From Escherichia phage RCS47: DNA of 64,000 nucleotides. Below the pieces are notes generated by a model, which was given only the letters and a program-made list of their open reading frames with translations, was not told where the DNA came from and made no database searches. Of this stretch, positions 1-36,745 are shown piece by piece (within the stretch, counting starts at the first letter, position 1; every line of letters starts with the position of its first letter). The position numbers and the translations under genes are program-made. Location: sequence record NC_042128.1; one strand, written 5' to 3'.

Positions 1-438
1 AGCAAAAACCACGCAATGATTGTCATTGAGGATTTGAAGGTTAAATACATGTCAAAGTCAGCGGCGGGAACGATAAGTCATCCGGGTCGCAATGTCCGGG
101 CAAAATCAGGTTTAAACCGTTCGATACTGGATCAGGGCTGGTATGAAATGCGCCGCCAGCTTGAGTACAAGCAGCTCTGGCGTGGCGGTCAGGTGCTTGC
201 TGTTCCGCCAGCGTACACAAGCCAGCGTTGCGCGTGCTGTGGTCATACAGCGAAAGAAAATCGCCTGTCACAAAGTAAATTCAGATGCCAGGTATGTGGA
301 TATACAGCGAACGCCGATGTAAACGGCGCTCGTAACATTTTAGCGGCGGGGCACGCCGTACTTGCCTGTGGAGGGATGGTGCAGTCAGGCCGCCCGTTGA
401 AGCAGGAACCCACCGAAATGATTCAGGCGACAGCCTGA
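1..438 (+). CDS. tnpB: IS200/IS605-family TnpB, C-terminal part (5' end lies outside the window)
   Basis: ORF runs off the window start; C-terminal zinc-finger/RuvC-like signature (CxxC ... CxxC, ...[10 protein letters not shown]); GC-rich hairpin at 445-464 typical of an IS right end. Confidence 0.7.
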
Positions 439-477
439 ACGTAGCAGGAATCCACGCCCTTCGGGGCGTGGAGGATG

Positions 478-843
478 TCACGCTGCCTCTTTAATGTTGG
501 CGGCTATCCATGCCGCCGTGTGCTGTTTAACCTGGTCCAGGTCGATGTATGTGCCAACATATTGACTCAAGTCCTGTAACGTACCGATAAATGCATCAGT
601 GCTCTGATCGACGAATTTATCAGCCAGGAAATCAGCAACCAGTTTTGGCACACCATCATGTACCGAAGGTTGTTTTTCCTCGCCACTACTGCCGCCGGAC
701 GCGCCGTACCCCATCTGTTGCATGATCTGGTCAATTTCATCGCTGATATCCAGCAACTCCATGCCACTCGCGGTAGCCGCTTTGGACATCAGAGCATCCA
801 ACTTATCGCTGAGGTCCATTAACTCAATAGCTGATAGTGTCAT
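478..843 (-). CDS. hypothetical protein, distal gene of darA-like operon
   Basis: 121-aa ORF overlapping the darA-like stop by 4 nt; assigned by position only. Confidence 0.45.
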   Translation of the reverse strand: MTLSAIELMDLSDKLDALMSKAATASGMELLDISDEIDQIMQQMGYGASGGSSGEEKQPSVHDGVPKLVADFLADKFVDQSTDAFIGTLQDLSQYVGTYIDLDQVKQHTAAWIAANIKEAA

Positions 844-2759
844 GCCGCTACCCCCGCTTTCTGGATTGCTACCAGCAGATCAGCCAGGTGGCGAGCAGCG
901 CCATTAACCAGCTCTTCGTTTTCCTCAAAACGTCCGGCAGCCTGAAGGGCTGCAATCGCTTCCCGGACATTGCCCCGGGCGTTACGGATCTCCGCCATGT
1001 CAGTGCTTTGCATATCCATCACGTTATTGAGATATTCAATGGCTTTATTAGCCTCTGCATCTGCTTCGCTAACCGTTTCATCAGGCTGTGCCGGGGCCGG
1101 TTCTGGCTGAGTAATCTCACCGACTTCGGCCTGCAATGCATTGATCATGCTCTGCACCATTTTCTCGGTGCCAGCGCCCCCCGGAAACGCAATATTGGGG
1201 AAAGTTTTTTGAAACTGAGTCTTCAGCATTACTCGGAACTCGTCTGGTGAGCTGGTGGCCAGCTCCAGAGCTTTTTGTGCATATTTGCCAAACGGACCAT
1301 TAGTAAGTGTCTTCGCCAGGAAGTCGAAAGAATCCTCGCGAGGCAATAACTTCAGGTCGTACTCACTCATTTGCTGATCAGAAAGCGGGGTATCGTAAGT
1401 AGCAATGCCGTAGCGTGCATATTCATAATACGGGTCACCTTCATCAGGGCGCGGCAGAATTGCTTTGTTACCTTCAGGTATTGCGCCAGGGGCCGCCGGA
1501 CGCATTTGCAGGGCATATCGATATGCACCTACAGAGACTTCTGGTTCAGGCGAAGAGCTACCGGTATCCTCCGCTGGTTCAGGTTCGACGTTTTCCGGTT
1601 TATGTTCTTCTGGTTGGACCAGGTATTCCGATACATTACCCGCTTTATAGGCTTTAAACAGCTTGCCGATCGCATCTGCCATGTCCACACCCTGTATGGA
1701 TTTAGCCTTGATCATGTACACGCTGCCATCCGAATCGGTTAACTGGATATACCCTTCACCGTCCTCAATGAATTGCTTCATTGATGCACCATTACTGAGC
1801 GTCACTTCCCCGTTCATATGCATACGATTTTTGATACTTGCAAGGCGATCCGTCATCGCGCGAGAGTGTCCACCAGTCATCCCCGCAGGAGCAATGGTTT
1901 CGCGCCCACCAGTGCGATTGAGCTGATCAATCTCCGTCTGCAAACGCTCATTCTCTTCATAAAGAGAATCCGCTTCCGATGCAACAGCGTTAATTTTCTG
2001 CTCCAGATCTGCCTTCTGCCCTTCTACCGCTGCCACCTGATCCGCGAGGTCGCTCATGGCATCCTCTTTCTGGTCACTGTCAGCCTGTAGTTGGGTTATT
2101 TCATCAACAAGGGCTTTTTTCTTCTTCTGCGCACGCTGGAATTTTGCCGAGTTTTTCTCTGCAAGGTTGGCAAGTTTCATGGTGACCTGCGCCAGCGTCA
2201 TATCACGTCCACTCATCGGAGCAACGGTGTGAGTAACGTCTTTTTTATTCAGTAAGAACTGGAAAGCAACCAGCGTATCGCTATTGGTGATCCGGTTTTC
2301 CGCTGTCGGGCTATGAAACAGAATGCTGATAGTCTGACCATCACTGAGCGGAATAATGGCAGGCAGGACTGGCAGCCCGTTAACGTTACGTGCCCGGCCA
2401 ATTTCAGCGCCGCCGATCGCGCGCGCGCCGCTCTGGGCCACATCCCCCGTTTTATCACTCCCCGCAGAGATTCCGGTACCATTCAGCTTCTGGTTCAATG
2501 CCCGGACAAATGCCTGCATGGTCCGGTGTAACTGCAAACGAGTAGAACTAATCGCCTCCAGTAAATCCGTAGCACACCAGTGGATCGGCGTGTCATAGAA
2601 GAACGTAGCCTCGATTTCCTCCAGGGTGTTGGATTCCGTCATCAGATAGCGGCCCTCACCGGCCATTAATGCGCGATATTCATCATCAGTCACTGGCGGG
2701 GGAAGCACGTCAAGCCCAGGTTTGATCGTCACCCCTTTATTGATATTGAACTGTTCCAT
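840..2759 (-). CDS. darA: DarA-like internal head / anti-restriction protein
   Basis: 639-aa ORF; shares a conserved segment (..KNSAKFQ..) and flanking similarity with the adjacent 203-aa protein, as expected for a darA/hdf pair; sits downstream of lydA/lydB-like genes. Confidence 0.5.
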   Translation of the reverse strand: MEQFNINKGVTIKPGLDVLPPPVTDDEYRALMAGEGRYLMTESNTLEEIEATFFYDTPIHWCATDLLEAISSTRLQLHRTMQAFVRALNQKLNGTGISAGSDKTGDVAQSGARAIGGAEIGRARNVNGLPVLPAIIPLSDGQTISILFHSPTAENRITNSDTLVAFQFLLNKKDVTHTVAPMSGRDMTLAQVTMKLANLAEKNSAKFQRAQKKKKALVDEITQLQADSDQKEDAMSDLADQVAAVEGQKADLEQKINAVASEADSLYEENERLQTEIDQLNRTGGRETIAPAGMTGGHSRAMTDRLASIKNRMHMNGEVTLSNGASMKQFIEDGEGYIQLTDSDGSVYMIKAKSIQGVDMADAIGKLFKAYKAGNVSEYLVQPEEHKPENVEPEPAEDTGSSSPEPEVSVGAYRYALQMRPAAPGAIPEGNKAILPRPDEGDPYYEYARYGIATYDTPLSDQQMSEYDLKLLPREDSFDFLAKTLTNGPFGKYAQKALELATSSPDEFRVMLKTQFQKTFPNIAFPGGAGTEKMVQSMINALQAEVGEITQPEPAPAQPDETVSEADAEANKAIEYLNNVMDMQSTDMAEIRNARGNVREAIAALQAAGRFEENEELVNGAARHLADLLVAIQKAGVAA

Positions 2760-2760
2760 G

Positions 2761-3372
2761 TTAATTTCCTGCTTTCAGTTGCTTAAGACGGCGTTTGAGT
2801 TCGCCATTTCGGGCCTTTTCGTTATTGAGTCGGCCTGTCTCCTTATCCAGCTTCGCCCGCAAATCAGTGATCTGCTGTTGATTGAAAGACACCGAGTTCT
2901 GCGCTGATTTATAAGCGGCAACCACCTGAGCATTCCGCTGTTTTGCCTCTTGCAGGCGCTGAAAGTTGGATTTTACTGCCGGTTTCTTGTCTACCGGATT
3001 GGCAACACGTTTCGCTTTGGCGATCAGTGATTTCTGGAATTTTGCGGAGTTTTTGCGGGCCGCTTGCCCCATGACGGTACCAAGCGTCTTGATATCCGGC
3101 GACTGAGCGTTAGGAATAGCTTTTCCATTCAGCCTCACAGACGATATATCGCCAGTATCGTTTACCTGTATGGCAAGAATTTGTCCGTCGTTAAGAACCA
3201 GCTTTGCGGTTTTAACTTTAACGCCATCTTTCGTTGTTGCGCGGTTGCTGGAGTCAACCTCAATTACCGTAACACCGGTTTTATTGATCGCCGCGATAAG
3301 GGATTTCAGCCCCTTTTCATTAACCTGGTCAAAATCGACCGTTGCATACTTATTTCTCGTCATCTGACACAT
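2761..3372 (-). CDS. hdf: Hdf-like protein (homolog of DarA fragment)
   Basis: 203 aa with internal similarity to the central part of the 639-aa DarA-like protein; coiled-coil C-terminus. Confidence 0.5.
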   Translation of the reverse strand: MCQMTRNKYATVDFDQVNEKGLKSLIAAINKTGVTVIEVDSSNRATTKDGVKVKTAKLVLNDGQILAIQVNDTGDISSVRLNGKAIPNAQSPDIKTLGTVMGQAARKNSAKFQKSLIAKAKRVANPVDKKPAVKSNFQRLQEAKQRNAQVVAAYKSAQNSVSFNQQQITDLRAKLDKETGRLNNEKARNGELKRRLKQLKAGN

Positions 3373-3793
3373 CCTGTGCGAGATTTATTACGTAACTTCT
3401 GCGGATTTGCTGAGTAACAGGGAAAATCCGATACAACGGGTTAATGAACGAGTCGCCATGCGTAACCATGACGTTGAAATGCCACAGCCGTTCTCCTTTA
3501 CCCATATATTCAGTGGGTATGTACAACCATTCACTGTTTTCGCCCTGTTCAGCCGACGTCAGACAACGTTGTTCGCCTTCAATCACTGTCGTTGGCTTCT
3601 GAACATCGCGGATCCAATATCTGACCGTTGCGCCGCGCAAAAACGGGAATTTAGACCGGTATTTGAACGGCACCCGGATGAAACCCGGTTTAATTTCCAC
3701 ATCACCAAGTTCTAAATGCGTGATGTCCTTGCGTTTTAGCAAATAGCGATCGGCTAAGGCTAACGCAAGAACGCATACACCCCAGCCAATCAT
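3350..3793 (-). CDS. lydB: LydB-like lysis regulator (antiholin candidate)
   Basis: 147 aa with N-terminal hydrophobic segment; start overlaps the holin stop (ATGA); assignment is positional. Confidence 0.4.
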   Translation of the reverse strand: MIGWGVCVLALALADRYLLKRKDITHLELGDVEIKPGFIRVPFKYRSKFPFLRGATVRYWIRDVQKPTTVIEGEQRCLTSAEQGENSEWLYIPTEYMGKGERLWHFNVMVTHGDSFINPLYRIFPVTQQIRRSYVINLAQDVSDDEK

Positions 3794-4119
3794 TTCCCGC
3801 CTCCCTTTTTCACCAAACTTGTAAGAACATTCAGAATGCTATCGATATTCACTCGTTTCATCCCTGAAATCACCTCATGACCGTTATTGCTGGCTATCGT
3901 TACCATTAAGTACGTAATTGATAACTCCCAGCCCTCGTGTTGCCCCAATAGGTACGCCACCGCGCCAGCTGTCACTGCAACAAAGATCTCCGTAACCAAT
4001 CCCAACAAATTGCCAGACTGGCGACCGTCTCGGACATCCATCAGGAACGTGCCTATCCCACCAATTACTGAAAGCAGGAGCGCAATAGCAACTGGAGCTA
4101 ATTCCTGTGTGTCAAGCAC
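3790..4119 (-). CDS. lydA: holin (LydA-like)
   Basis: 109 aa with predicted transmembrane helices and charged C-terminus; first gene of the operon. Confidence 0.5.
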   Translation of the reverse strand: MLDTQELAPVAIALLLSVIGGIGTFLMDVRDGRQSGNLLGLVTEIFVAVTAGAVAYLLGQHEGWELSITYLMVTIASNNGHEVISGMKRVNIDSILNVLTSLVKKGGGK

Positions 4120-4179
4120 AAGTTCCCTCCTACGTTGTCAGGAGGTAATGGTATGCAAAGTAACTTCTCATCTGGTTGT

Positions 4180-4464
4180 TCATAATTTGCCAATACATTC
4201 GTAAATCAAGTGAAAAACCCATATTTTGGTTATTCTTAATACAAAATGGCTATTCCAACTACATATCAAAAAAGCAACCACATCCAAAAATGAGTTTCCC
4301 CACTGAACTTCTGCAAGACAAAAACCAACAAAACCACCTTTTATGGCAAGCAGCCATGCTTCAAGCCAATGTAAAAAACATGGCTTATAAGCTCCACGCC
4401 TAACTCCAGTAAGAAATAAATAGGTTCCACTAATAATGGACATTAAAAAAATCAAAATCTGCAT
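4180..4464 (-). CDS. small hydrophobic membrane protein
   Basis: 94-aa ORF preceded by a strong RBS (GGGAGGAG); very hydrophobic; AT-rich codon usage suggests an accessory gene. Confidence 0.4.
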   Translation of the reverse strand: MQILIFLMSIISGTYLFLTGVRRGAYKPCFLHWLEAWLLAIKGGFVGFCLAEVQWGNSFLDVVAFLICSWNSHFVLRITKIWVFHLIYECIGKL

Positions 4465-4585
4465 AAGCTCCTCCCGGATCTAACAAAAATCAAGCAGGAA
4501 CCTATTCAGATTGTTATTTCTGTGCATAACGCTTTGTTCTTTAAAATTCGCAGACTCATAAGAACAACGCATTAGAGTAAAAATC

Positions 4586-5147
4586 ATGCTGATCGGCTAT
4601 GTACGCGTATCAACAAATGAACAAAACACTGCTTTGCAACGAAATGCCCTTGAAAGCGCAGGATGTGAGCTAATTTTTGAGGATAAGGCGAGCGGCAAAC
4701 AGACTGAACGCCCTGGGCTAAAAAAGGTTTTGCGTATGCTTTCCAGAGGTGACACCCTGGTCGTATGGAAGTTAGATCGTCTTGGGCGCAGCATGCGTCA
4801 CTTGGTTGTGCTGGTGGAAGAGCTGCGTGACAGAGGAATTAATTTCCGGAGTCTCACTGACTCTATCGACACCAGTACACCAATGGGGCGCTTTTTCTTT
4901 CACGTAATGGGGGCGCTGGCAGAAATGGAACGTGAGCTTATCGTTGAACGTACACGCGCTGGACGTGATGCAGCTCGCGCAGAAGGTCGTAATAGGTGGG
5001 CGTCGGCCTAAATACCAAGAAGAAACATGGCAGCAAATGCGGCGATTGCTGGAGAATGGCATCCCCCGTAAGCAGGTTGCAATCATCTATGATGTGGCTG
5101 TTTCCACGCTTTATAAGAAGTTTCCGGCGTCGTCATTTCAATCCTAA
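4586..5147 (+). pseudogene. cin: Cin/Gin/Pin/Hin-family serine DNA invertase, interrupted by a +1 frameshift near 4990-4992
   Basis: N-terminal resolvase catalytic domain (MLIGYVRVSTNEQ...) in frame 1 stops at 5011; C-terminal HTH domain (GGRRPK...IPRKQVAIIYDVAVSTLYKK) continues in another frame from ~4980 to 5147; removing one A from AA at 4991-4992 restores ...AEGR-IGGRRPK... Confidence 0.8.
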
Positions 5148-5164
5148 ACCTTGGTTTAAGAGAA
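5139..5164. other. recombination crossover site (cixL/gix-like, 26 bp)
   Basis: caatcctaaacc-tt-ggtttaagagaa: two 12-bp half-sites around a 2-bp core, matching the Hin/Gin/Cin site pattern; overlaps the invertase stop codon. Confidence 0.7.
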
Positions 5165-5297
5165 CTCGGTACCAGCGGTGAAAAGATCCCCCTGTTGAGC
5201 ACGGCTAACACATGGAGTGCGCGCCAGACTTTCAACGGAGGGATCACCGGGGCACTGACAGGGAACGCCGACACCGCGACGAAATTGAAAACAGCAC
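5153..5297. repeat. left inverted repeat of invertible segment
   Basis: near-identical reverse complement of 9013-9157 (encodes ...GEKIPLLSTANTWSARQTFNGGITGALTGNADTATKLKTA in both fiber variants). Confidence 0.85.
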
Positions 5298-7027: not shown

Positions 7028-7056
7028 AAATTAAGGCCCGCTATCGGGCCTTGTCT
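7028..7056. terminator. bidirectional rho-independent terminator between convergent tfa genes
   Basis: hairpin aaggcccg-ctat-cgggcctt with flanking A/T runs. Confidence 0.5.
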
Positions 7057-7589
7057 CATTCAGGTTGTTCGGGAAATGTTACTGGCAGGCTGGAGGTGTC
7101 TGTAGATTCGACTTTCTGCGCATAGAGCATCCACTCAGTTAATTTTTGTTTATTCTCGTCGGAAATGATGCCCAGCCGTAGCTGTGAGTCCCATAGCTGG
7201 GTTTTATCCCTGACAAGTTGCAACAGGCTTTGTTTTTCATTCTCTGCCTGCTGCCTTTGTTCCTCCTCGGTATAAGTTCGCTTTATCACTACGCCATCTT
7301 TGAACATCCATTTACCCGAAATATCAGCCCGGCGATTTGCTGTAATATCAGGAACCTCAACGACGCTTGCGCCTTCTGGATTAATTGCTGAAACATCCTT
7401 TTCAATACAAATAATAACGTCGTTGTGGTCATAGACCATTTTCAACGTATCAGGCTGAAAGTTCTTTTGTTCCTCATACCAGTTTTTCCCATCCTCTGTA
7501 TAAAGCCATTTGATGTTAAATTGTTTCGTTAGCTGGTATTGCTCTTTTGTTTTAGGGTTGCCAGCAGTAATGTTTTTTAAGTGCATCAT
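7056..7589 (-). CDS. tail fiber assembly protein (U)
   Basis: 177 aa Tfa-family chaperone immediately downstream of the expressed tail fiber. Confidence 0.8.
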   Translation of the reverse strand: MMHLKNITAGNPKTKEQYQLTKQFNIKWLYTEDGKNWYEEQKNFQPDTLKMVYDHNDVIICIEKDVSAINPEGASVVEVPDITANRRADISGKWMFKDGVVIKRTYTEEEQRQQAENEKQSLLQLVRDKTQLWDSQLRLGIISDENKQKLTEWMLYAQKVESTDTSSLPVTFPEQPE

Positions 7590-24109: not shown

Positions 24110-24120
24110 TTGCTCTAATC
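24110..24120 (+). promoter_or_regulatory. truncated C1 operator-like motif (attgctctaat) abutting the IS left end
   Basis: first 11 nt of the 17-mer; the remainder is replaced by IS sequence. Confidence 0.3.
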
Positions 24121-25560
24121 TGGAGTCACCTGGCGTTTTCAGCGAAAAACCGCCGAGAACCCTCGCCCAATGCGGGCGGGGAGGAAAGGCGGAAAAGCCC
24201 GAAGGGCTTTAAAAATATTATTACGGTGTTAGCATAAAAACCTGTACCAATGAGCGGTGACTATGTTAAGAGCAACAAAAGTACGCATCTACCCGACACC
24301 AGAACAGGCTGAATTTATCAACGCCCAGTTCGGTGCAGTGCGTTTTGTGTACAACAAAGCTCTGCATATCAAGAAACATTCTTACCAGCGGCACCGCGTA
24401 AATTTAAACCCGCGTAAAGACCTCAAACCACTGCTTGCAGTGGCGAAGAAATCCCGCCGGTATGGATGGCTTAAAGAATATGATTCTATTGCGTTGCAGC
24501 AGGCGGTAATTAACCTCGACGTGGCTTTTTCTAACTTTTTCAATCCGAAACTGAAAGCAGGTAAACCTACCTTTAAAAGTAAACACGGCAGACAATCTAG
24601 CTATCATTGTGTTGGCATAAAAGTCCTTGATGGTGCGATAAAAATACCGAAAATCTTGCCGATTGAAGCGCGTTTACATCGTGAAATTACGGGAATGCTG
24701 AAAAGTATCACGTTGAGCCGCAGCGCAACCGGGAAATACTACGCGTCGTTACTCTGTGACGACGGGATGGAAGCGCCGGCAAAGCCCGCACTGATATCAA
24801 ATGTGACAGGGCTGGATATGGGGCTGGCGCATTTTGTCATCAAATCGGACGGCAATAAAATTGCCAGTCCCCGCCACCTAATCAATGCAAGTCGCAACCT
24901 GCGCCGGAAGCAGAAAGCACTGTCCCGTAAGAAAAAAGGGAGCGCAAACAGGCGCAAAGCCAGAATACAACTTGCAGCCGTTCACGAACGGGTAGCCAGT
25001 GCCCGTGCCGATTTCCAGCACAAGTTATCTCGCGCAATTGTTGACGAAAACCAAGCGGTAATTGTCGAAACATTGAAAACGGCAAATATGATGAAAAATC
25101 ACCATCTGGCTCGTGCGATAGGCGATGCTGGATGGTCTGGATTCATCACAAAACTGGAATACAAAGCAACAGAGAAAGGTGTGCATCTGGTGAAACTGGA
25201 TCAATGGTTCGCCAGTTCGAAAACCTGCCACTGCTGCGGTCACAAAATGTCGGAGATGCCATTACATAAGCGCATCTGGCAGTGTCCAGAGTGTGGAGTT
25301 GAACATGACCGCGATATCAATGCGGCGCTCAACATCAAACGCAAGGGCATACTGGAATTACAAGCGGCGGGACTCGTCGTTTCTGCCCATGGAGGCCAGC
25401 GTAAATCCGTCACACAGACGGTTGCGGCTTAAGAAGTGGGAAGCCTCGCCCGACAGGGCGGGGAGCAGTCACTATGGATTTTCTTTGGCGCGGTCTGGCC
25501 ATTAGGGGTCATGTTTGCTGCAACGTTTCTTCTGATGTGGATATTCACCCTTCCAGGTGA
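24121..25560 (+). mobile_element. IS200/IS605-family element encoding only TnpB (right boundary uncertain, between ~25470 and ~25770)
   Basis: tnpB flanked by GC-rich subterminal hairpins (ctcgccc..gggcgggg motif on both sides); no tnpA ORF. Confidence 0.7.
24263..25432 (+). CDS. tnpB: TnpB (RNA-guided RuvC-like nuclease of IS200/IS605 family)
   Basis: ~389 aa; N-terminal ...ATKVRIYPTPEQ..., C-terminal zinc finger CHCCGH...CPECG and ...DRDINAALNI; start taken at ATG 24263. Confidence 0.85.
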   Translation: MLRATKVRIYPTPEQAEFINAQFGAVRFVYNKALHIKKHSYQRHRVNLNPRKDLKPLLAVAKKSRRYGWLKEYDSIALQQAVINLDVAFSNFFNPKLKAGKPTFKSKHGRQSSYHCVGIKVLDGAIKIPKILPIEARLHREITGMLKSITLSRSATGKYYASLLCDDGMEAPAKPALISNVTGLDMGLAHFVIKSDGNKIASPRHLINASRNLRRKQKALSRKKKGSANRRKARIQLAAVHERVASARADFQHKLSRAIVDENQAVIVETLKTANMMKNHHLARAIGDAGWSGFITKLEYKATEKGVHLVKLDQWFASSKTCHCCGHKMSEMPLHKRIWQCPECGVEHDRDINAALNIKRKGILELQAAGLVVSAHGGQRKSVTQTVAA

Positions 25561-25770
25561 TTTCTATAGAAAAAAAGCCAGACATTGATACACCCGCTGC
25601 GGTGTGCTTGAGGCTATCTGCTTCAGGCATTCCCCGAAAAGCAGATAGAAGAAAGCCCCAGTAAACATTATGCGTCCCGCACAACGCTTAACATTAACCG
25701 GGGCCATACCTATGCTTAGCGTGCTTAGATTAATCCTCTCCTCTGTCAAGGAGCAAGGAATTTTTTACTG

Positions 25771-26367
25771 CTATGCCGCCTTTCCAGTTATGGATTCAGC
25801 GACCAGAACAACCCCATGCTTACTTCGATCTGGGTGTTCACTCCATATCTCGGATTCAGGAATACTTACCCCGTCATAGCAAACACGTTCGCCGTCAAAC
25901 GGGTAATACTGAGCGGCATCGGTGTCGAGGATAAACACTTTTAGCTCGGAAGAGCGACGGGCGATATGTTGCCAAAGAGCTTTTCCACCTTCGTATTGCT
26001 CATTATCACTGAGCAAAACAACACCAGCTTTTGAGGCTACGGTTTCGTAAACAAAAGTAGCTAAACCGACATCCCGGACAGTTCCATCAACCACGATACC
26101 TTCAATCTGGGCAACATCGCTATCCTCCCAGAACTTCCTTACCAGTACGCCTTCAAGCTGCGGGCGACGTTGAAGTTCAAGAGTAGCGACAACCTTATGC
26201 CGCATATCACCATCGATAACAGAAGGCGCAGCCTCTATTACAGCTGCAAATGGGGTTTTGGAATCCCATATAACCTGGTAAAGCACACCCTGGATGGTAA
26301 CTCCGTCCAGGATCGAAAATCGACGAGCGACAGTACCCGGGGAGTACGACATTGGAATCACAGCCAT
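25771..26367 (-). CDS. hypothetical protein (pmgF-like by position)
   Basis: 198 aa from internal Met with AAGGGGGA RBS. Confidence 0.4.
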   Translation of the reverse strand: MAVIPMSYSPGTVARRFSILDGVTIQGVLYQVIWDSKTPFAAVIEAAPSVIDGDMRHKVVATLELQRRPQLEGVLVRKFWEDSDVAQIEGIVVDGTVRDVGLATFVYETVASKAGVVLLSDNEQYEGGKALWQHIARRSSELKVFILDTDAAQYYPFDGERVCYDGVSIPESEIWSEHPDRSKHGVVLVAESITGKAA

Positions 26368-26489
26368 TTTAGAGTCCCCCTTTAACAGTACAGGCACAAA
26401 CATCTACCTCAATAATTGTAGTTTATTAGAACATTAATAATCTAACATAAAACTCCAGACAATGTTATCGATGCATTTTTATATAAAAT

Positions 26490-26520
26490 AGTTATAAAAA
26501 AAGCTCCCGAAGGAGCTTTA
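26490..26520 (-). terminator. rho-independent terminator of the sheath/capsid operon
   Basis: hairpin aaagctcc-cgaa-ggagcttt followed by a T-run on the - strand. Confidence 0.55.
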
Positions 26521-31984: not shown

Positions 31985-32085
31985 TAAAATCCAAGGTGAA
32001 ATCGTGGCGATTTCACCTTGAAATTTTAGAGTAATTTACTTTAAAAACAGTCAGTTAATAGTGAAATTTGAATGGCGAAAGTTTA
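31985..32085. other. parS: plasmid centromere parS
   Basis: palindrome aaggtgaaatcgtggcgatttcacctt (heptamer ATTTCAC boxes with TCGCCA box) at 31993-32019, AT-rich putative IHF site, second GTGAAAT/TGGCGA arm at 32059-32081; immediately downstream of parB. Confidence 0.8.
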
Positions 32086-33084
32086 AGGCTTCGGCTTTTT
32101 ATCGAGGCTCTTTCTAAGGATATGCCCAATCATCCTGTCGAGTTCTTCCTGTAACTCTTTTGAGAGTCGATTAAACTCATAAGAAAATGCACGGCCTTTC
32201 ACGCGCTTCCTTGCAAAGCGATCCTTGTCCTCAAATTTCCATAATTCAGTAACTACGGACTTATCTTTAGAACCTTTATCCGTGAGTAGTGAGGCTTCCT
32301 TTGTTATCAAGCGCAGGATTTTATTTTTAACTTCATCTTCGGCCATTTCTTCAATGGATAAGATGTCGTTTATTTCCGGGGATATGTTTTGAATAAGCTG
32401 ATCAAACTCTAAATTCTTGTTCCCCATTTCGTCGCCAACAGCACAAAGCGTTTTGTAGTCCGAAAAGGTTAATTCCGACTGCACAGGGAAAAGGGCGACT
32501 AATTCTTCCGGAGCACTCGCTGCCTGGAGAGCACGCGTGACCTTCGCCTGAGACAGCCCTTCTTTGGCTGCAATATCCTTCTGACTCATCCCATCATTTT
32601 TCATTCGCATCAAACGCAGACCTATTTCTCGAATGCTGTGCTGCAATGCTGTCTGAACGTCTTTCGCTAAATTTTGCGCTTCCTGAACGCTGATCTCCTG
32701 GTCCGTGACTAAAACCCGCAACCCTACGTTCTCTAAGATGGCAGAAGCTCGACGCCGGGAACCATCCAAAATTTCAATTTTCCCTGTAGCCCGTCTGACA
32801 CCTATTGCAGGGTAAAATTGCTGATGCTTAATAGTGCTTCGGATACTTTTTAATGATTTTGGCGTAAGAGATGCCTGGTCACGCCCGTTGTTATGCTGAT
32901 CAACAAAGGTATCGCTTTCTACCTGGTTCGGAGGTATTACCTCTTCAATAAATGTGGCCTGGCGACCAGTTGATAACTTGAATACCTGCTCGACTCGATC
33001 GCCAGAGGCTGAAGAACTATCAAATCCGCTTAATATTGAAGGATTAAGGGTTCGCCCAATTGTTGGTCTGTTTTTCTTTGACAT
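32083..33084 (-). CDS. parB: partition protein ParB
   Basis: 333 aa; HTH ParB family; adjacent to parA and parS. Confidence 0.85.
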   Translation of the reverse strand: MSKKNRPTIGRTLNPSILSGFDSSSASGDRVEQVFKLSTGRQATFIEEVIPPNQVESDTFVDQHNNGRDQASLTPKSLKSIRSTIKHQQFYPAIGVRRATGKIEILDGSRRRASAILENVGLRVLVTDQEISVQEAQNLAKDVQTALQHSIREIGLRLMRMKNDGMSQKDIAAKEGLSQAKVTRALQAASAPEELVALFPVQSELTFSDYKTLCAVGDEMGNKNLEFDQLIQNISPEINDILSIEEMAEDEVKNKILRLITKEASLLTDKGSKDKSVVTELWKFEDKDRFARKRVKGRAFSYEFNRLSKELQEELDRMIGHILRKSLDKKPKP

Positions 33085-33100
33085 GGGGGTTTCTTACTCC

Positions 33101-34297
33101 TCAGTTAGATCTGATAAATTCAATACGGTCAAAAACTGCTTTAGCAAAATCTTCCGCGGCAATTCGCGCGTTCTTCAATGCATCAGCACTACCAACATAC
33201 GTTGCCGGGTTAGCTGAAATAACAGTGTCAAAAGACTCGCCGCAGCGTTCAAAACCGTCAAGGCGAGGGAGGACGACATCAAGCATATCCCCACCGAACA
33301 CTTCTTTAGCCAGGCTATGGCAATACTTATGGTCTGCCTTGTTACTCAACTTGGACATAAAACCAATGTTAGTCGCAAGCTGGCACTCGCAGCCTTCATC
33401 CGAAATGAGTTTTACCAACTCAGGAAGGCGGGCAACGTATTTAAGCGATGAGTGGAAATCAACCGTTGCAGGCGGCAGAGGTGTAAACAGTATATTGGCC
33501 GAGGCCAAAGCATTTTTCAGGAAGGCGTCAAGGTGAGGACCACTATCAACGAGGATAAAGTCATAATCGCTCTTCAGCTTATCAATCACATTTTCTTTCA
33601 GGACTGCATGGATGTTTTGACCCGGTAGATGCTCATTGCACAGCTCTCTCCAATCGGATGCAATAAAGGCATCGTCAATCGACGCAGGCATAACGTCAAC
33701 CCCAGGTACAACAGAAGGAACAATAAACTCCTCTAACAGCTCTTCACGGCTTACATTCTGCAACATAGCCTGTGCAGATGTTGCGTTTACGATACCAATA
33801 GAGTGTTTATGGCTTAAAAACATCGTTGCTGAAGATTGCGGATCAAGGTCAATAACCAGAATCCTTAAATCTTCCATCAGAAGATGAGGGTGAGCACGCA
33901 TTGCATGCGCCAGAGAAACCGTCGATACAGTTTTTGACACACCGCCTTTAAGATTGGAGATGAAAATCACATACGCTTCGCTGTAGCGATCCCGGTATTT
34001 TGGCACTCCGCGATGTTCATATATGTCAATGATGTTCTGAATTGACATCGCATATTTCATTGAAGAGCCAGCAGGGCGTTTATCGAAAACATAACCCTTT
34101 TCTTCCATTTCACTCACGGCATAGTCAACGTTCGCTCGAGTCAGTAGAGGCAATTTTGCCAGTGCCGCTTTCGCATAGACCTGGTAAAACTCGTTCGCGT
34201 GTAGCTCATCCTTTTGCAACTGTACTTGTTCAGTCAGAACATTGAGCATTCTGTTTGCTCTTTGAGCAACCTTGTGAAGCTGGCTGGAATCACTCAT
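33101..34297 (-). CDS. parA: partition ATPase ParA (type Ia, with N-terminal DNA-binding extension)
   Basis: 398 aa; deviant Walker A KGGVSKT. Confidence 0.9.
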   Translation of the reverse strand: MSDSSQLHKVAQRANRMLNVLTEQVQLQKDELHANEFYQVYAKAALAKLPLLTRANVDYAVSEMEEKGYVFDKRPAGSSMKYAMSIQNIIDIYEHRGVPKYRDRYSEAYVIFISNLKGGVSKTVSTVSLAHAMRAHPHLLMEDLRILVIDLDPQSSATMFLSHKHSIGIVNATSAQAMLQNVSREELLEEFIVPSVVPGVDVMPASIDDAFIASDWRELCNEHLPGQNIHAVLKENVIDKLKSDYDFILVDSGPHLDAFLKNALASANILFTPLPPATVDFHSSLKYVARLPELVKLISDEGCECQLATNIGFMSKLSNKADHKYCHSLAKEVFGGDMLDVVLPRLDGFERCGESFDTVISANPATYVGSADALKNARIAAEDFAKAVFDRIEFIRSN

Positions 34298-34366
34298 CGA
34301 AAGCCATCCTTTATGCTGTATTTTTGAATTTAATTAAAAATGCTGCATAAAATAATAATGTATGCG

Positions 34367-34383
34367 TAGATGCTTGTACATAG
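34367..34383. promoter_or_regulatory. candidate parA operator palindrome
   Basis: atgct-tgtaca-t-agcat near-palindrome in the parA promoter region. Confidence 0.3.
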
Positions 34384-34434
34384 CATTCTCTGCATGTTTG
34401 GTTCATTTTGCACGATTGAGAGTTACAAGGAGGG

Positions 34435-34460
34435 CACAAAAAAGCCCCGTTCAGGGGCAT
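34435..34460 (-). terminator. rho-independent terminator after the T5orf172 gene
   Basis: - strand hairpin gcccctgaacggggc followed by TTTTTTGTG. Confidence 0.6.
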
Positions 34461-34465
34461 CAGTG

Positions 34466-35275
34466 TTATTTGCTAAGAGCAGCGAATAATCGTTCGAAAT
34501 CGATAGTATCTATGGCACGCGTAAGCGCCGGAAGTTCAGCCTCAAAGTACCCGTGTCGATCGTAAAAGAAGGGACCGAAGAGCGAGGCATGTTGGATTCT
34601 ACTTCGCCCCAGCCCGGACACACAGTTAAGCCCATTACCGGCTAAAAGGCTAAAAAACTTCTCTGGATTATCGTGGTAAAGCTGGGAATCAATGGTGGCG
34701 GTTAACTCTTCCATAGGGAAGCACACCCGCCTTGTCTCCCAGGAATATTTAGTCCGAAGCATAAACATTGCTTTCAGCAATTCACATTGAGCGCGGATCG
34801 CGTCCGGTTCATAGCCAGATATGGAGACATAAGCCACGTCCCTCATTCCTGCGTCATCTTTGAAAGTCACGATAGAAGTAACATCCAGCTCTTTTTCGAA
34901 AGAGCGGGCAGCATCTACTGGACGCTGAAGTAAATCATTCGACTTAATGCGCTCGAGAATCCCTCCCCACATATCATTTAGATATTCGATATGAGCCAAA
35001 ACCTTATCAAGACACTCTCGTGTAAACCATTCAGTATGCCCGCCACCAGCGCTTTTCTCCCACGGCGCATTCCAGGGGAAAAAGGTTGCGTGTAAAGCCC
35101 GCTCAAGATTAACTATTGCCAAACGCGTACCACGATAGACCCGTGAAAGCGCAAAATCGGGACTCACTTGTAGCCCTTTAAACCGTGCCAATGGACCACA
35201 TGAAATGCCGATTTTAAAAGTATCTCCATTCTCCGGCACCAGAACGTAGAGGTAGTGTTGTTTCTCTTCTTGCAT
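34466..35275 (-). CDS. T5orf172 (GIY-YIG-like) domain protein with uncharacterised C-terminal domain
   Basis: 269 aa; N-terminus HYLYVLV...FKIGIS...R...E..LH..F...GGGHTEWF matches T5orf172/MUG113 signature including the EWF motif. Confidence 0.6.
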   Translation of the reverse strand: MQEEKQHYLYVLVPENGDTFKIGISCGPLARFKGLQVSPDFALSRVYRGTRLAIVNLERALHATFFPWNAPWEKSAGGGHTEWFTRECLDKVLAHIEYLNDMWGGILERIKSNDLLQRPVDAARSFEKELDVTSIVTFKDDAGMRDVAYVSISGYEPDAIRAQCELLKAMFMLRTKYSWETRRVCFPMEELTATIDSQLYHDNPEKFFSLLAGNGLNCVSGLGRSRIQHASLFGPFFYDRHGYFEAELPALTRAIDTIDFERLFAALSK

Positions 35276-35309
35276 ATCAATACCACTGCTTGATGAGAAC
35301 CGCGCAAAT

Positions 35310-35566
35310 GTTGACTATGCGCGAAAGTTAATGTGAATAGTTGACTATGCGCGATGTGACTACAGTCAAAAGTTGACTGTAGTCGATTTAACTCCACCAA
35401 AGATCGACTATGTAAGATATTGTCGGGAGAAACGTTGACTATACGCGATGAAATGACCCTAAAAGCCATCTCAATAGCAACTTGCAGAATATTGACGCCA
35501 GCAAAAATCCACCAGCGTCAACGAATGTCGCCTATAGTCAACTTCTCGCTATCGCATATAGTCAAT
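35310..35566. repeat. incA-like iteron array (copy-number control)
   Basis: at least 8 copies of TTGACTATRCGCGA-like repeats in both orientations between repA and parA. Confidence 0.6.
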
Positions 35567-35567
35567 A

Positions 35568-36452
35568 TTATGGATTGCGCTTATGGATCTGGAAGCCGAT
35601 TTTCCTGCCGTTTTTTATTTCTGAAAATTTAAGATATTCAATAGCTTCCAAATCTTTCATGGCTTTTCTGATAACGCTATTTTGCACGCTAACGGATGAT
35701 TTGAGATTAAGCCTTGCTCTAAGGCGCTCAATGCTGACAGGTGCCGGGTTGGCGGGTAGAGCCTCAAAGAATGTATACAGTACCTTGGCCGTCTCTTTGC
35801 GCCCGAGCTTATCCAGCATCTTCAGCTTCAGGATTCGCTTATAGTCAACATAGTAAAGTTCAGATAGCTGTTTCTGCGGCTGGATCTCGATAACATCAAG
35901 CTCAGTATTCAGGCTGCTATATGCCAACAAGTTGACGTTAATGTTATTGAGATGACCTTTTGCCGCCGGGAAGCGGAATTTGACAACTGTCTGCTGAATG
36001 CGTGTCAGAGAGTCATCAATACTTTTACGGAACGCCTTTGAAAGGCGCTTACGTGGATAGCCGCATCGATCGGCAAACTCGGAGAATGGCAGGGTGATTA
36101 TGCCGTCATCATCAGGAGCATAGTCAAACAACGCGGAGGTTATGCCCACCCACACCTTAAAATCAGTATCCATATCCAGGCGTGGACCATGAATTTCAAT
36201 TCCCTCATAGCCTTCCTGCTCAACAATTTTGAGGCTTGATAGTTCTTCGGTTGCGTTCGTTGTGTTTGTTGTAACTGACGATCCGCGACGTAGCGCCACA
36301 TTGGTAGATTTTAAGGTTGGCACAAACACACCTAAGCGCAACAAAGCTATGGGTTGTATAGTGCTGTTGTTATTGGGCTTCAGGCTGTGGATTTCTCCTG
36401 TATTTCCTGCAACTTCTTCAACGCTAAGGAAGCCTTTACTTTCTTCCGGCAT
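35568..36452 (-). CDS. repA: plasmid replication initiator RepA (iteron-binding)
   Basis: 294 aa flanked by iteron arrays on both sides. Confidence 0.75.
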   Translation of the reverse strand: MPEESKGFLSVEEVAGNTGEIHSLKPNNNSTIQPIALLRLGVFVPTLKSTNVALRRGSSVTTNTTNATEELSSLKIVEQEGYEGIEIHGPRLDMDTDFKVWVGITSALFDYAPDDDGIITLPFSEFADRCGYPRKRLSKAFRKSIDDSLTRIQQTVVKFRFPAAKGHLNNINVNLLAYSSLNTELDVIEIQPQKQLSELYYVDYKRILKLKMLDKLGRKETAKVLYTFFEALPANPAPVSIERLRARLNLKSSVSVQNSVIRKAMKDLEAIEYLKFSEIKNGRKIGFQIHKRNP

Positions 36453-36527
36453 CGTGGTTTCTCCATGTGTGGCGCGGCCTGGCGTTAATTTAGATGACTG
36501 TTATCAACAGCTGTGAATATTCAGGCT

Positions 36528-36745
36528 CTAAAATCGCGTACAGTCAACGTTTCTGTCGCGTATAGTCAACAATAAATCGCGTGCAGTCAACATAAAATCG
36601 CACACAGTCAACATAAAATCGCGTATAGTCAATGTTGATCCCGTTTCAGGCCATGAACGGCGCGGCTTACAGCGATCCGGGATCTTCTTTGGATCTTCCT
36701 AGGTTCTCTTTGGGATCTGTTTATTGGATCTATGCTGTGGATAAG
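36528..36745. other. plasmid origin oriR: 5 direct iterons (incC), 5 GATC sites, DnaA box
   Basis: five ~19-bp direct repeats (a/t)aaatcgcRtRcagtcaac at 36530-36633 with ~21-bp periodicity; GATC at 36674, 36681, 36692, 36714, 36727; perfect DnaA box tgtggataa at 36736-36744. Confidence 0.75.

Follow-up and report, generated by a model that had tools for sequence, protein, structure and literature searches.

The 64,000-nucleotide stretch of Escherichia phage RCS47 analysed here (sequence record NC_042128.1; hereafter, the window) carries at 478-4166, on its minus strand, what is almost certainly the late dar (darA) operon, in the form of its P7 alleles, from a plasmid prophage of the P1/P7 type (Punavirus). 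The features of the locus are as follows.

1..481, plus strand: right end of a tnpB-only IS200/IS605-family element (Pfam Cas12f1-like_TNB, E 5.2e-25)
478..843, minus strand: ddrA, 121 aa (ORF list, junction alignment)
840..2759, minus strand: darA, 639 aa (ORF list, Pfam, PDB match)
2553-2759, in darA: DarA propeptide, residues 1-69 (limits from PMC12810830)
2148-2564, in darA: DarA_N domain of DarA, residues 66-204 (Pfam)
2136-2156, in darA: KNSAKFQ, residues 202-208
about residues 205-285 of DarA: long alpha-helix (limits from PMC12810830)
1344-1529, in darA: DarA_C domain, residues 411-472 (Pfam)
2761..3372, minus strand: hdf (odaE in P7), 203 aa (ORF list, Pfam, PDB match)
3046-3336, in hdf: DarA_N domain of Hdf, residues 13-109 (Pfam)
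3034-3054, in hdf: KNSAKFQ, residues 107-113
2764-2970, in hdf: C-terminal alpha-helix of Hdf, residues 135-203
3350..3793, minus strand: lydB, 147 aa antiholin (LydA antagonist; Pfam LydB, E 8.1e-104)
3790..4119, minus strand: lydA, holin of 109 aa that starts with GTG and opens the operon (Pfam Phage_holin_3_3, E 5.4e-7)
4148..4166, minus strand: late promoter LPdar, at the position annotated in the P1 and P7 records
4180..4464, minus strand: lydC, 94 aa accessory holin, P7 allele (P7 annotation)

The analysis establishes what each gene at 478-4166 is, and likewise the promoter. In nucleotide comparison, positions 482-5200 are 99.3% identical to P7 and 98.0% to P1; the proteins of the operon are 97-100% identical to their P1 or P7 counterparts, and the gene order matches that annotated in both phages, namely ddrB-ddrA-darA-hdf-lydB-lydA-LPdar-lydC-cin. 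Among the window proteins, DarA_N, DarA_C, LydB and the LydA holin family are all found above the Pfam cut-off. All five operon genes that lie within the window are intact, and up to the IS the operon is complete, running from LPdar through lydA (holin), lydB (antiholin), hdf and darA to ddrA. A preliminary description, made from the sequence alone, had placed a "DarA-like" operon at 840-3372. Its two open reading frames, 840-2759 and 2761-3372, are confirmed to the nucleotide, both on the minus strand and encoding 639 and 203 aa, and the family assignment holds, as both proteins share 98% identity with P1 DarA and Hdf from end to end; mere likeness, however, is too weak a term, because the operon is the P7 allele itself. 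The operon does start with the holin/antiholin pair as in P1, as had also been proposed, but this pair lies at 3350-4119, outside the range given for it. Plus-strand open reading frames within darA and hdf (for example, 837-1250, 1371-1742 and 3064-3417) were treated as spurious because they have no counterpart in the detailed P1 annotation.

The surroundings are likewise those of a Punavirus. Positions 482-24119 are collinear with P7 30685-54302 at 98-99.5% identity, most of 26497-58048 is 96.6-98.2% identical to P7, and the c4 antisense RNA and its targets are detected in the window with Rfam. On the 3' side of darA, ddrA is present (117 of 121 residues identical to P1 DdrA and 118 of 121 to P7 OdaC) and is followed by the IS, inside which the left edge of the window falls. 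Going by the P1 ORF numbering, in which Ulx is 9, DarB is 10 and DdrB to Hdf are 22 to 25 (PMC9024508), darB and ulx would be expected to the left of the window. As a separate observation, the dmt methyltransferase gene in the window contains an unannotated LAGLIDADG intein within its catalytic PCQ motif; a literature search found no described intein in a P1-type Dmt.

At the promoter end, the -10 element TACCAT of LPdar occupies 4148-4153 and its 9-bp -22 box, AAGTTACTT, occupies 4158-4166; every base of 4120-4170 is identical to P1 and P7. LydA is identical to its P1 and P7 counterparts at all 109 positions and LydB to that of P7 at all 147 (145 of 147 for P1). The lydA stop and the lydB ATG overlap by 4 nt, and lydB overlaps the start of hdf by 23 nt. 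Directly upstream of the dar operon, lydC forms an early transcription unit of its own, with the C1 operator Op(lydC) placed at 4565-4581 via the P7 annotation; the sequence here is the same as in P7. Its product, whose role is that of an accessory holin (PMC9025707), is identical to P7 LydC (94/94) and only distantly similar to that of P1 (25/95).

The hdf gene lies immediately upstream of darA, with a single nucleotide between the hdf stop and the darA ATG. Hdf is identical to P1 Hdf at 199 of 203 positions and to P7 OdaE at 202, contains DarA_N (PF18788, E 1.5e-21) and matches chain H of PDB 9UKM (E 2e-121). DarA is identical to P1 DarA at 626 of 639 positions and to that of P7 at 631 (eight amino-acid differences), contains both DarA_N (E 3.8e-42) and DarA_C (PF18789, E 5.7e-17) and is matched over residues 1-639 by chain I of the same entry (E=0). 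Several of its 13 substitutions relative to P1 fall within residues 275-343, where the helix ends and the penton-binding domain lies, and two, V10M and G36D, lie in the propeptide (residues 1-69).

Hdf and DarA are paralogs. That Hdf is an internal paralog of DarA had been proposed from the outset, and this is correct; however, what Hdf matches is DarA's N-terminal third (about residues 66-281) and not the central region. Because residues 1-69 are reported to be removed, the Hdf-like part would form the N-terminus of mature DarA. Pairwise alignment, suggested earlier as a check, reveals similarity beyond chance: the two proteins are 29% identical over 105 aa by BLASTP (E 8e-4), and the Smith-Waterman score of 84 compares with 43.0±6.7 (maximum 70) for 1000 shuffles of Hdf, the short protein, with none reaching 84 (z=6.1). 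One might still attribute such a likeness to chance or composition, driven by lysine-rich coiled coils without common descent, as the BLASTP E value is only 8e-4 at 29% identity and the helical tails compared alone show no significant sequence similarity (170 of 1000 shuffles reach their score). However, when only the globular parts are compared, z is 6.7 and none of 1000 shuffles scores as high, and the independent Pfam model DarA_N matches both proteins far above its cut-off. In addition, hhalign with three-phage profiles of Hdf and of DarA aligns Hdf 43-200 with DarA 121-281 over 144 collinear columns (95.7% probability, E 1e-8), and the shared invariant residues are kept in D6 and JK004. 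Shuffles, Pfam, invariant residues and profile-profile comparison thus refute a chance similarity, the probability of which is practically nil. The idea that the helices, too, are recognisably homologous by sequence was set aside, as the tails are not significantly similar when compared alone; only the profile alignment, in which they are collinear, supports it.

Eight residues are invariant across both paralogs in three phages. They include Hdf D62, which corresponds to D140 in the DGQ motif of DarA, and Hdf N82-x-K84; the latter motif, N82-G-K84 in Hdf and N171-K-K173 in DarA, is invariant or conservatively basic in both paralogs of the three phages. For the alpha+beta domain DarA-N, a conserved Asp and an Asn-X-basic (NX+) motif have been described (Iyer et al. 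2017; PMC5512222), and the invariant residues of Hdf and DarA fit both. The heptapeptide KNSAKFQ noted in the preliminary description is indeed shared by both proteins; as a family signature it was rejected, since D6 Hdf has RGATSFQ at this position and D62, Q64, L81, N82 and F112 are invariant instead.

The ATG of ddrA overlaps the darA stop by 4 nt. In place of its native TAA, the gene ends here with a TGA (478-480) that the terminus of the IS provides. The element, in which the 3' end of tnpB lies at 16-438 and a right-end hairpin, CCACGCCC-TTCG-GGGCGTGG, at 452-471, lies immediately 3' to TTAT and antisense to the operon. It separates ddrB from ddrA exactly at the ddrA stop, where P1 runs on into ddrB. 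Homology to P1 and P7 begins at 482, and ddrB lies beyond the left edge of the window. The same insertion occurs in phage SJ46, where the element is 1335 bp long with insQ annotated and a full-length ddrB homolog lies beyond it. The ddrA-IS junction is present in 75 PLSDB plasmids; it is at least 99% identical in 62 plasmids and is also found in the inducible phage SJ46 and in vB_EcoM-813R1.

The IS may or may not affect ddrB expression. An element of this length (1335 bp in SJ46) between ddrA and ddrB, transcribed against the operon, might be polar on ddrB and thereby impair the operon, leaving hdf-darA-ddrA functional and yielding virions without DdrB and, by way of the loading order, without DarB-dependent protection against EcoB and EcoK. 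DdrB has been reported to help the addition of DarB to the capsid (PMC9024508), and cin within the window has a private frameshift, so that some decay is present. However, conservation of the junction at 99% identity or more in 62 plasmids, as well as its presence in SJ46 and vB_EcoM-813R1, implies that the insertion is not obviously deleterious. Furthermore, terminator-like and promoter-like counts in the IS were no higher than in shuffles in a consensus scan, no convincing intrinsic terminator was found on the operon strand within the IS, and all five operon genes in the window are intact. An operon impaired in this way therefore seems unlikely to us, and it is quite improbable that the IS, with its replacement TGA, uncouples ddrB from LPdar throughout the lineage of SJ46, vB_EcoM-813R1 and some 75 PLSDB plasmids. 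If the IS were polar, members of this lineage would naturally be low in DdrB; their head size would be controlled normally by DarA/Hdf, but they would counter a narrower range of restriction systems, the DarB/EcoB-EcoK branch being lost.

What this operon does can be read from P1 (PMC12810830; bioRxiv 10.1101/2025.11.26.689930; PMC9024508; PMC12707154; PMC9025707), and we infer that what is known there about structure, processing, the effect on head size, the order of loading and the restriction phenotypes holds for the 98-100% identical copy described here. In cryo-EM structures (PDB 9UKM/9VZ0), P1 DarA and Hdf form 55 helix-bundle pairs that sit on the inside of the capsid and touch DNA; according to published genetics, both proteins determine head size and are needed for loading DdrA, DdrB, DarB and Ulx (PMC12810830). 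For deletion mutants of P1, a fall in large heads from about 80% to about 15% is reported, along with loss of all Dar proteins. In late lytic growth, Lpa-dependent LPdar would thus drive lydA, lydB, hdf, darA and ddrA, which would be translationally coupled via their overlapping or abutting stops and starts; in P1, the transcript runs on into ddrB. In both DarA and Hdf, a long alpha-helix would come after the DarA_N alpha+beta domain, the two helices pairing into a parallel bundle that would be fixed to the inside of the capsid wherever a penton meets a hexon, with 55 pairs per head and the basic N-domains pointing towards the packaged DNA. The prohead protease Pro would cut off the DarA propeptide (residues 1-69), and DarA-Hdf together with the capsid protein N-terminus would serve as an auxiliary scaffold, shifting assembly towards large (T=13) and away from small (T=7) heads. 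DdrA, DdrB, DarB and Ulx would then be loaded in order onto the DarA-Hdf platform. Upon infection, the Dar proteins would exit the head with the DNA and shield it, in cis only, from type I restriction, with the DarA branch directed against EcoA/StySA and the DarB branch against EcoB/EcoK.

Current literature regards DarA and Hdf mainly as head-size determinants and as a Dar loading platform (PMC9024508; PMC12810830). The classical view that DarA protects against EcoA would instead make DarA and Hdf themselves the anti-restriction effectors, which coat the ejected DNA or remain attached to it and sterically exclude type I enzymes, rather than chiefly a scaffold or platform. Several observations are in line with such a direct role: positively charged faces of the N-domains contact DNA in the structure, the pairs are missing from heads that have ejected all their DNA, and protection against EcoA/StySA is ascribed to Hdf and DarA by the authors (PMC12810830). 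Dar protection, moreover, acts in cis only (PMC12707154). As to how the Dar proteins block type I enzymes, occlusion in cis is still a hypothesis of the literature. However, loss of DarA or Hdf leaves all other Dar proteins absent from virions (PMC12810830), and the restriction phenotype of darA and hdf mutants can therefore be indirect; in addition, about 55-100 copies of DarA would seem too few for coating 94 kb of DNA. The sources disagree on the EcoA antagonist, which is DarA/Hdf in one (PMC12810830) and DdrA in another, in which Gonzales et al. assign DdrA to EcoA and DarB to EcoB/EcoK (PMC9024508). A direct effector role is thus possible but rather doubtful.

Overall, the darA-hdf operon described here is already known, ordinary and well studied, nothing speaks against its identification, and there is no pointer to a new function for darA or hdf themselves. 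What is re-identified is textbook material, for which genetics and virion proteomics have been published and, since 2026, in-situ cryo-EM structures as well. It is nevertheless of value for annotation, as in many P1-like plasmid records these genes, ddrA at the IS junction among them, still go by the name "hypothetical protein". Two small corrections, moreover, serve those who cite the pair as a case of duplication within a genome: Hdf is equivalent to DarA's N-terminal third, and the invariants are D...N-x-K and not KNSAKFQ.

The closest known system is that of P7 (AF503408; odaC-darA-odaE-lydB-lydA, LPdar, lydC), in which promoter and gene order are as here and LydA, LydB and LydC are 100% identical. 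In P7, however, no IS separates ddrA from the ddrB homolog (annotated "prt"), and cin is intact, whereas cin here is frameshifted. The Dar system of P1 (lydA lydB hdf darA ddrA ddrB, plus darB and ulx), from which everything known on the mechanism derives, has the same genes, order and LPdar; P1 lydC, however, is a different allele, and the IS at the ddrA/ddrB junction is a feature of the copy described here. SJ46, vB_EcoM-813R1 and about 75 P1-like PLSDB plasmids share both the operon and the tnpB-only IS at the ddrA stop; SJ46 is 98.0% identical but differs in the invertase and tail-fibre region. Gene order is conserved in divergent phages: phage D6 (orf25-30) and Cronobacter phage JK004 (genes 116-121) retain the order lydA-lydB-hdf-darA-ddrA-ddrB with both paralogs and share the invariant D...N-x-K residues, although Hdf and DarA are only 38% and 40% identical in D6 (79% and 72% in JK004) and the D6 ddrB homolog is much shorter (1365 bp).

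Beyond these phages, DarA-N occurs in the phage "polyvalent proteins", and the same Pfam family, PF18788, was defined on the DarA N-terminus and Hdf (PMC5512222). There, DarA-N is fused to many effector domains in one giant polypeptide (PMC5512222), whereas here it is found in two separate small proteins, each with a helix. Two further likenesses are functional analogies only. IPI* of phage T4 is also head-internal, is injected with the DNA and counters a restriction system, and the given difference from Dar is that it inhibits the enzyme directly (PMC12810830). CpmA and CpmB of SaPI1 are accessory scaffolds that redirect capsid size; however, they promote small capsids and are removed when the head matures, whereas DarA-Hdf promote large ones and remain in the mature head (PMC12810830).

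The interval 840-3372 is filled, as the preliminary description had it, by two minus-strand ORFs in the six-frame ORF list, encoding the long protein DarA and the short protein Hdf (odaE in P7), and the same strand also holds three further tightly packed ORFs. When window 1-5200 is compared with phage records by megablast, 482-5200 is 99.3% identical to phage P7 and 98.0% to P1, and the matching P7/P1 annotation runs in the order ddrB ('prt' in P7), ddrA, darA, hdf, lydB, lydA, LPdar, lydC, cin.

Features of the dar operon and of lydC, with identical residues in global protein alignments to P1 and P7
478..843, minus strand: ddrA (odaC in P7), 121 aa, downstream of darA, its own ATG overlapping the darA stop; 117/121 P1, 118/121 P7
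840..2759, minus strand: darA, 639 aa; 626/639 P1, 631/639 P7
2761..3372, minus strand: hdf, 203 aa; 199/203 P1, 202/203 P7
3350..3793, minus strand: lydB, 147 aa, upstream of hdf, overlapping its neighbour; 145/147 P1, 147/147 P7
3790..4119, minus strand: lydA, 109 aa, GTG start, upstream of hdf, overlapping its neighbour; 109/109 P1, 109/109 P7
4148-4153: -10 element of LPdar, TACCAT
4158-4166: 9-bp -22 box of LPdar, AAGTTACTT
4180-4464: lydC, P7 allele, only 26% identical to P1 lydC; 25/95 P1, 94/94 P7

Pfam matches above the curated cut-offs are DarA_N and DarA_C in DarA, DarA_N in Hdf, LydB, and the LydA holin family, and DarA and Hdf match end to end the P1 cryo-EM chains 9UKM/9VZ0 ('Defense against restriction protein A', 'Hdf'). 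Both the naming of darA and hdf after P1 and the claim that a holin/antiholin pair opens the operon as in P1 are borne out by these identities; PMC9025707 describes LydA as the canonical holin, antagonised by LydB, with both made from the late dar operon, and lydC as a separate early unit directly upstream. Because the LPdar stretch is identical to P1 and P7 at every base, its -10 element and -22 box can be placed, and because lydC is P7-like and unlike that of P1, a sharp mosaic boundary lies a short way upstream of LPdar, around base 4170.

Farther along, cin, the C-segment invertase gene (4586-5147, plus strand), carries an extra A near 5001 (GGTCGTAATAGG versus GGTCGT-ATAGG in P1 and P7) and a T>G change close to it; its frame ends at 5011, giving 141 aa rather than 186, and the DNA-binding part at the C-terminus is lost. 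Not one of the 215 matching plasmids has these two differences (best match 98.6%), and the change is either a private inactivating mutation or a sequencing error; if real and inactivating, it would leave the tail-fibre segment locked. Gene U, for the tail-fibre chaperone (7056-7589), is one intact 177-aa ORF, which the P7 record splits into Ua and Ub.

The sole structural difference of the operon from the reference phages is at its distal end, where homology to P1/P7 starts at base 482.

1-481: right end of an IS200/IS605-family element, with the TnpB C-terminus (Pfam Cas12f1-like_TNB) and a right-end hairpin at 452-471

The whole element in Salmonella phage SJ46 (L003 2147-3481) is 1335 bp and tnpB-only, and comparison with it shows that the insertion took place exactly 3' of TTAT, at the stop codon of ddrA, and duplicated no target. 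The native ddrA TAA is lost, and the IS right end supplies a replacement TGA, so DdrA keeps 121 residues. The junction occurs in 75 PLSDB plasmids (62/75 at >=99% identity); consensus scans gave no basis for calling the IS polar or non-polar on ddrB.

The preliminary description took Hdf for a paralog of the central region of DarA. The paralogy is upheld: in BLASTP, DarA 107-210 aligns with Hdf 29-115 (29% identity, E 8e-4), and the Smith-Waterman score is 84 against 43.0±6.7 (maximum 70) in 1000 Hdf shuffles. In the shuffle test z is 6.7 for the globular parts taken by themselves, whereas the helical parts are collinear but lack significant similarity when tested alone. As a check on whether the pair is old, Hdf was used as a tblastn query; divergent homologs came up in two phages, D6 (38% identical) and the Cronobacter phage JK004 (79%). 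Profiles of three Hdf and three DarA sequences match Hdf 43-200 to DarA 121-281 in 144 collinear columns at 95.7% probability (E 1e-8). From these alignments, Hdf is the counterpart of the N-terminal third of DarA (about 66-281, domain plus long helix), not of its centre. The shared heptapeptide KNSAKFQ is indeed present (DarA 202-208, Hdf 107-113) and striking in P1 and P7, but it is not an invariant, as D6 Hdf reads RGATSFQ. Invariant in all six jointly aligned sequences are Hdf N18, G33, D62, Q64, T73, L81, N82, F112, L192 and L199; the invariant Asp and Asn-x-Lys/Arg agree with what Iyer et al. (PMC5512222) give for the DarA-N domain, a 'conserved aspartate and NX+ motif'.

The mechanism comes from the P1 literature and is carried over by near-identity. 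The in situ model of Zheng et al. (2026; PMC12810830) covers residues 70-382 of DarA and 135-203 of Hdf and has 55 DarA-Hdf pairs on the inner capsid surface at penton-hexon junctions, joined through a parallel alpha-helix bundle and complementary charges; residues 1-69 of DarA are not seen, which agrees with their being cleaved off by the prohead protease Pro. The same appendages are reported in T=13 large heads and not in T=7 small heads in an independent preprint (bioRxiv 10.1101/2025.11.26.689930). As Piya et al. (2017) are quoted in PMC12810830, deletion of hdf or darA lowers large heads from ~80% to ~15% and strips virions of all other Dar proteins, and Hdf and DarA load first, followed by DdrA, DdrB, DarB and Ulx. 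A role as scaffold and loading platform is the best supported for both proteins. They may also shield DNA directly. DNA is apposed to positively charged faces of both N-domains, and heads emptied of all their DNA no longer contain the pairs (PMC12810830). Dar action is described as confined to cis, affecting the DNA packed together with it (PMC12707154). Virion-internal protection of injected DNA from type I restriction, which had been ascribed to these two proteins, holds at the level of the system, and with these corrections both the observation and the interpretation of the preliminary description stand.

A local blastn comparison of the window with 57 kb of P7 reveals a P7-like genome backbone in which a few modules have been exchanged.

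24120-26496: stands where P7 has rapA/rapB
24257-25432: second, full-length IS200/IS605 tnpB, 391 aa (Pfam HTH_OrfB_IS605, OrfB_IS605, TNB)
25602-25775: sok antitoxin RNA match (Rfam)
25771-26403: 210-aa ORF without Pfam match
32028-36658: partition/replication module without DNA-level match to P7
32083-33084: ParB
33101-34297: ParA with HTH_54 domain
34466-35275: T5orf172-domain protein, between parA and repA
35568-36452: Rep3-type RepA
44900-46354: replaces the P7 terB region
44488-44907 and 44908-45237: two small ORFs without Pfam matches
45509-46336: SPFH/Band 7 protein, 275 aa

The sok match suggests a hok/sok-type module at 24120-26496, and the partition/replication module suggests an incompatibility type other than that of P7. 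The SPFH/Band 7 gene and the two small ORFs are flanked by tRNA genes at 44210-44360 and 46364-46436.

The most noteworthy sight in the window, outside the flagged feature, is the intein of dmt, the gene of a Dmt/Dam-type bifunctional DNA methyltransferase (40249-43536, plus strand; 1095 aa versus 672 aa in P7). The extra 340 aa (40483-41502, plus strand) is a canonical LAGLIDADG intein, with Cys1, a block B that reads TNDH, a pair of LAGLIDADG motifs, a terminal His-Asn, and Pfam Hint_2 and LAGLIDADG_3. It splits the C5-methyltransferase motif between GGTP and CQAFS (...VLVGGTP|CFTAGHMVL...GAVVHN|CQAFSIAG...), its +1 Cys being the catalytic Cys of the PCQ motif. The insert is found at >=99% identity in three phage records, one a P1 derivative, and in 126 PLSDB plasmids (>=80% query coverage, 95-100% identity); the features annotated under these matches are only Dmt/Dam methyltransferase, and no description was found in the literature that could be searched.

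Overall, the operon at the flagged locus is nearly identical to one already characterised by genetics, proteomics and structure, and is as such already known. Its gene order, lydA-lydB-hdf-darA-ddrA-ddrB, is the same in the divergent phages D6 and JK004.
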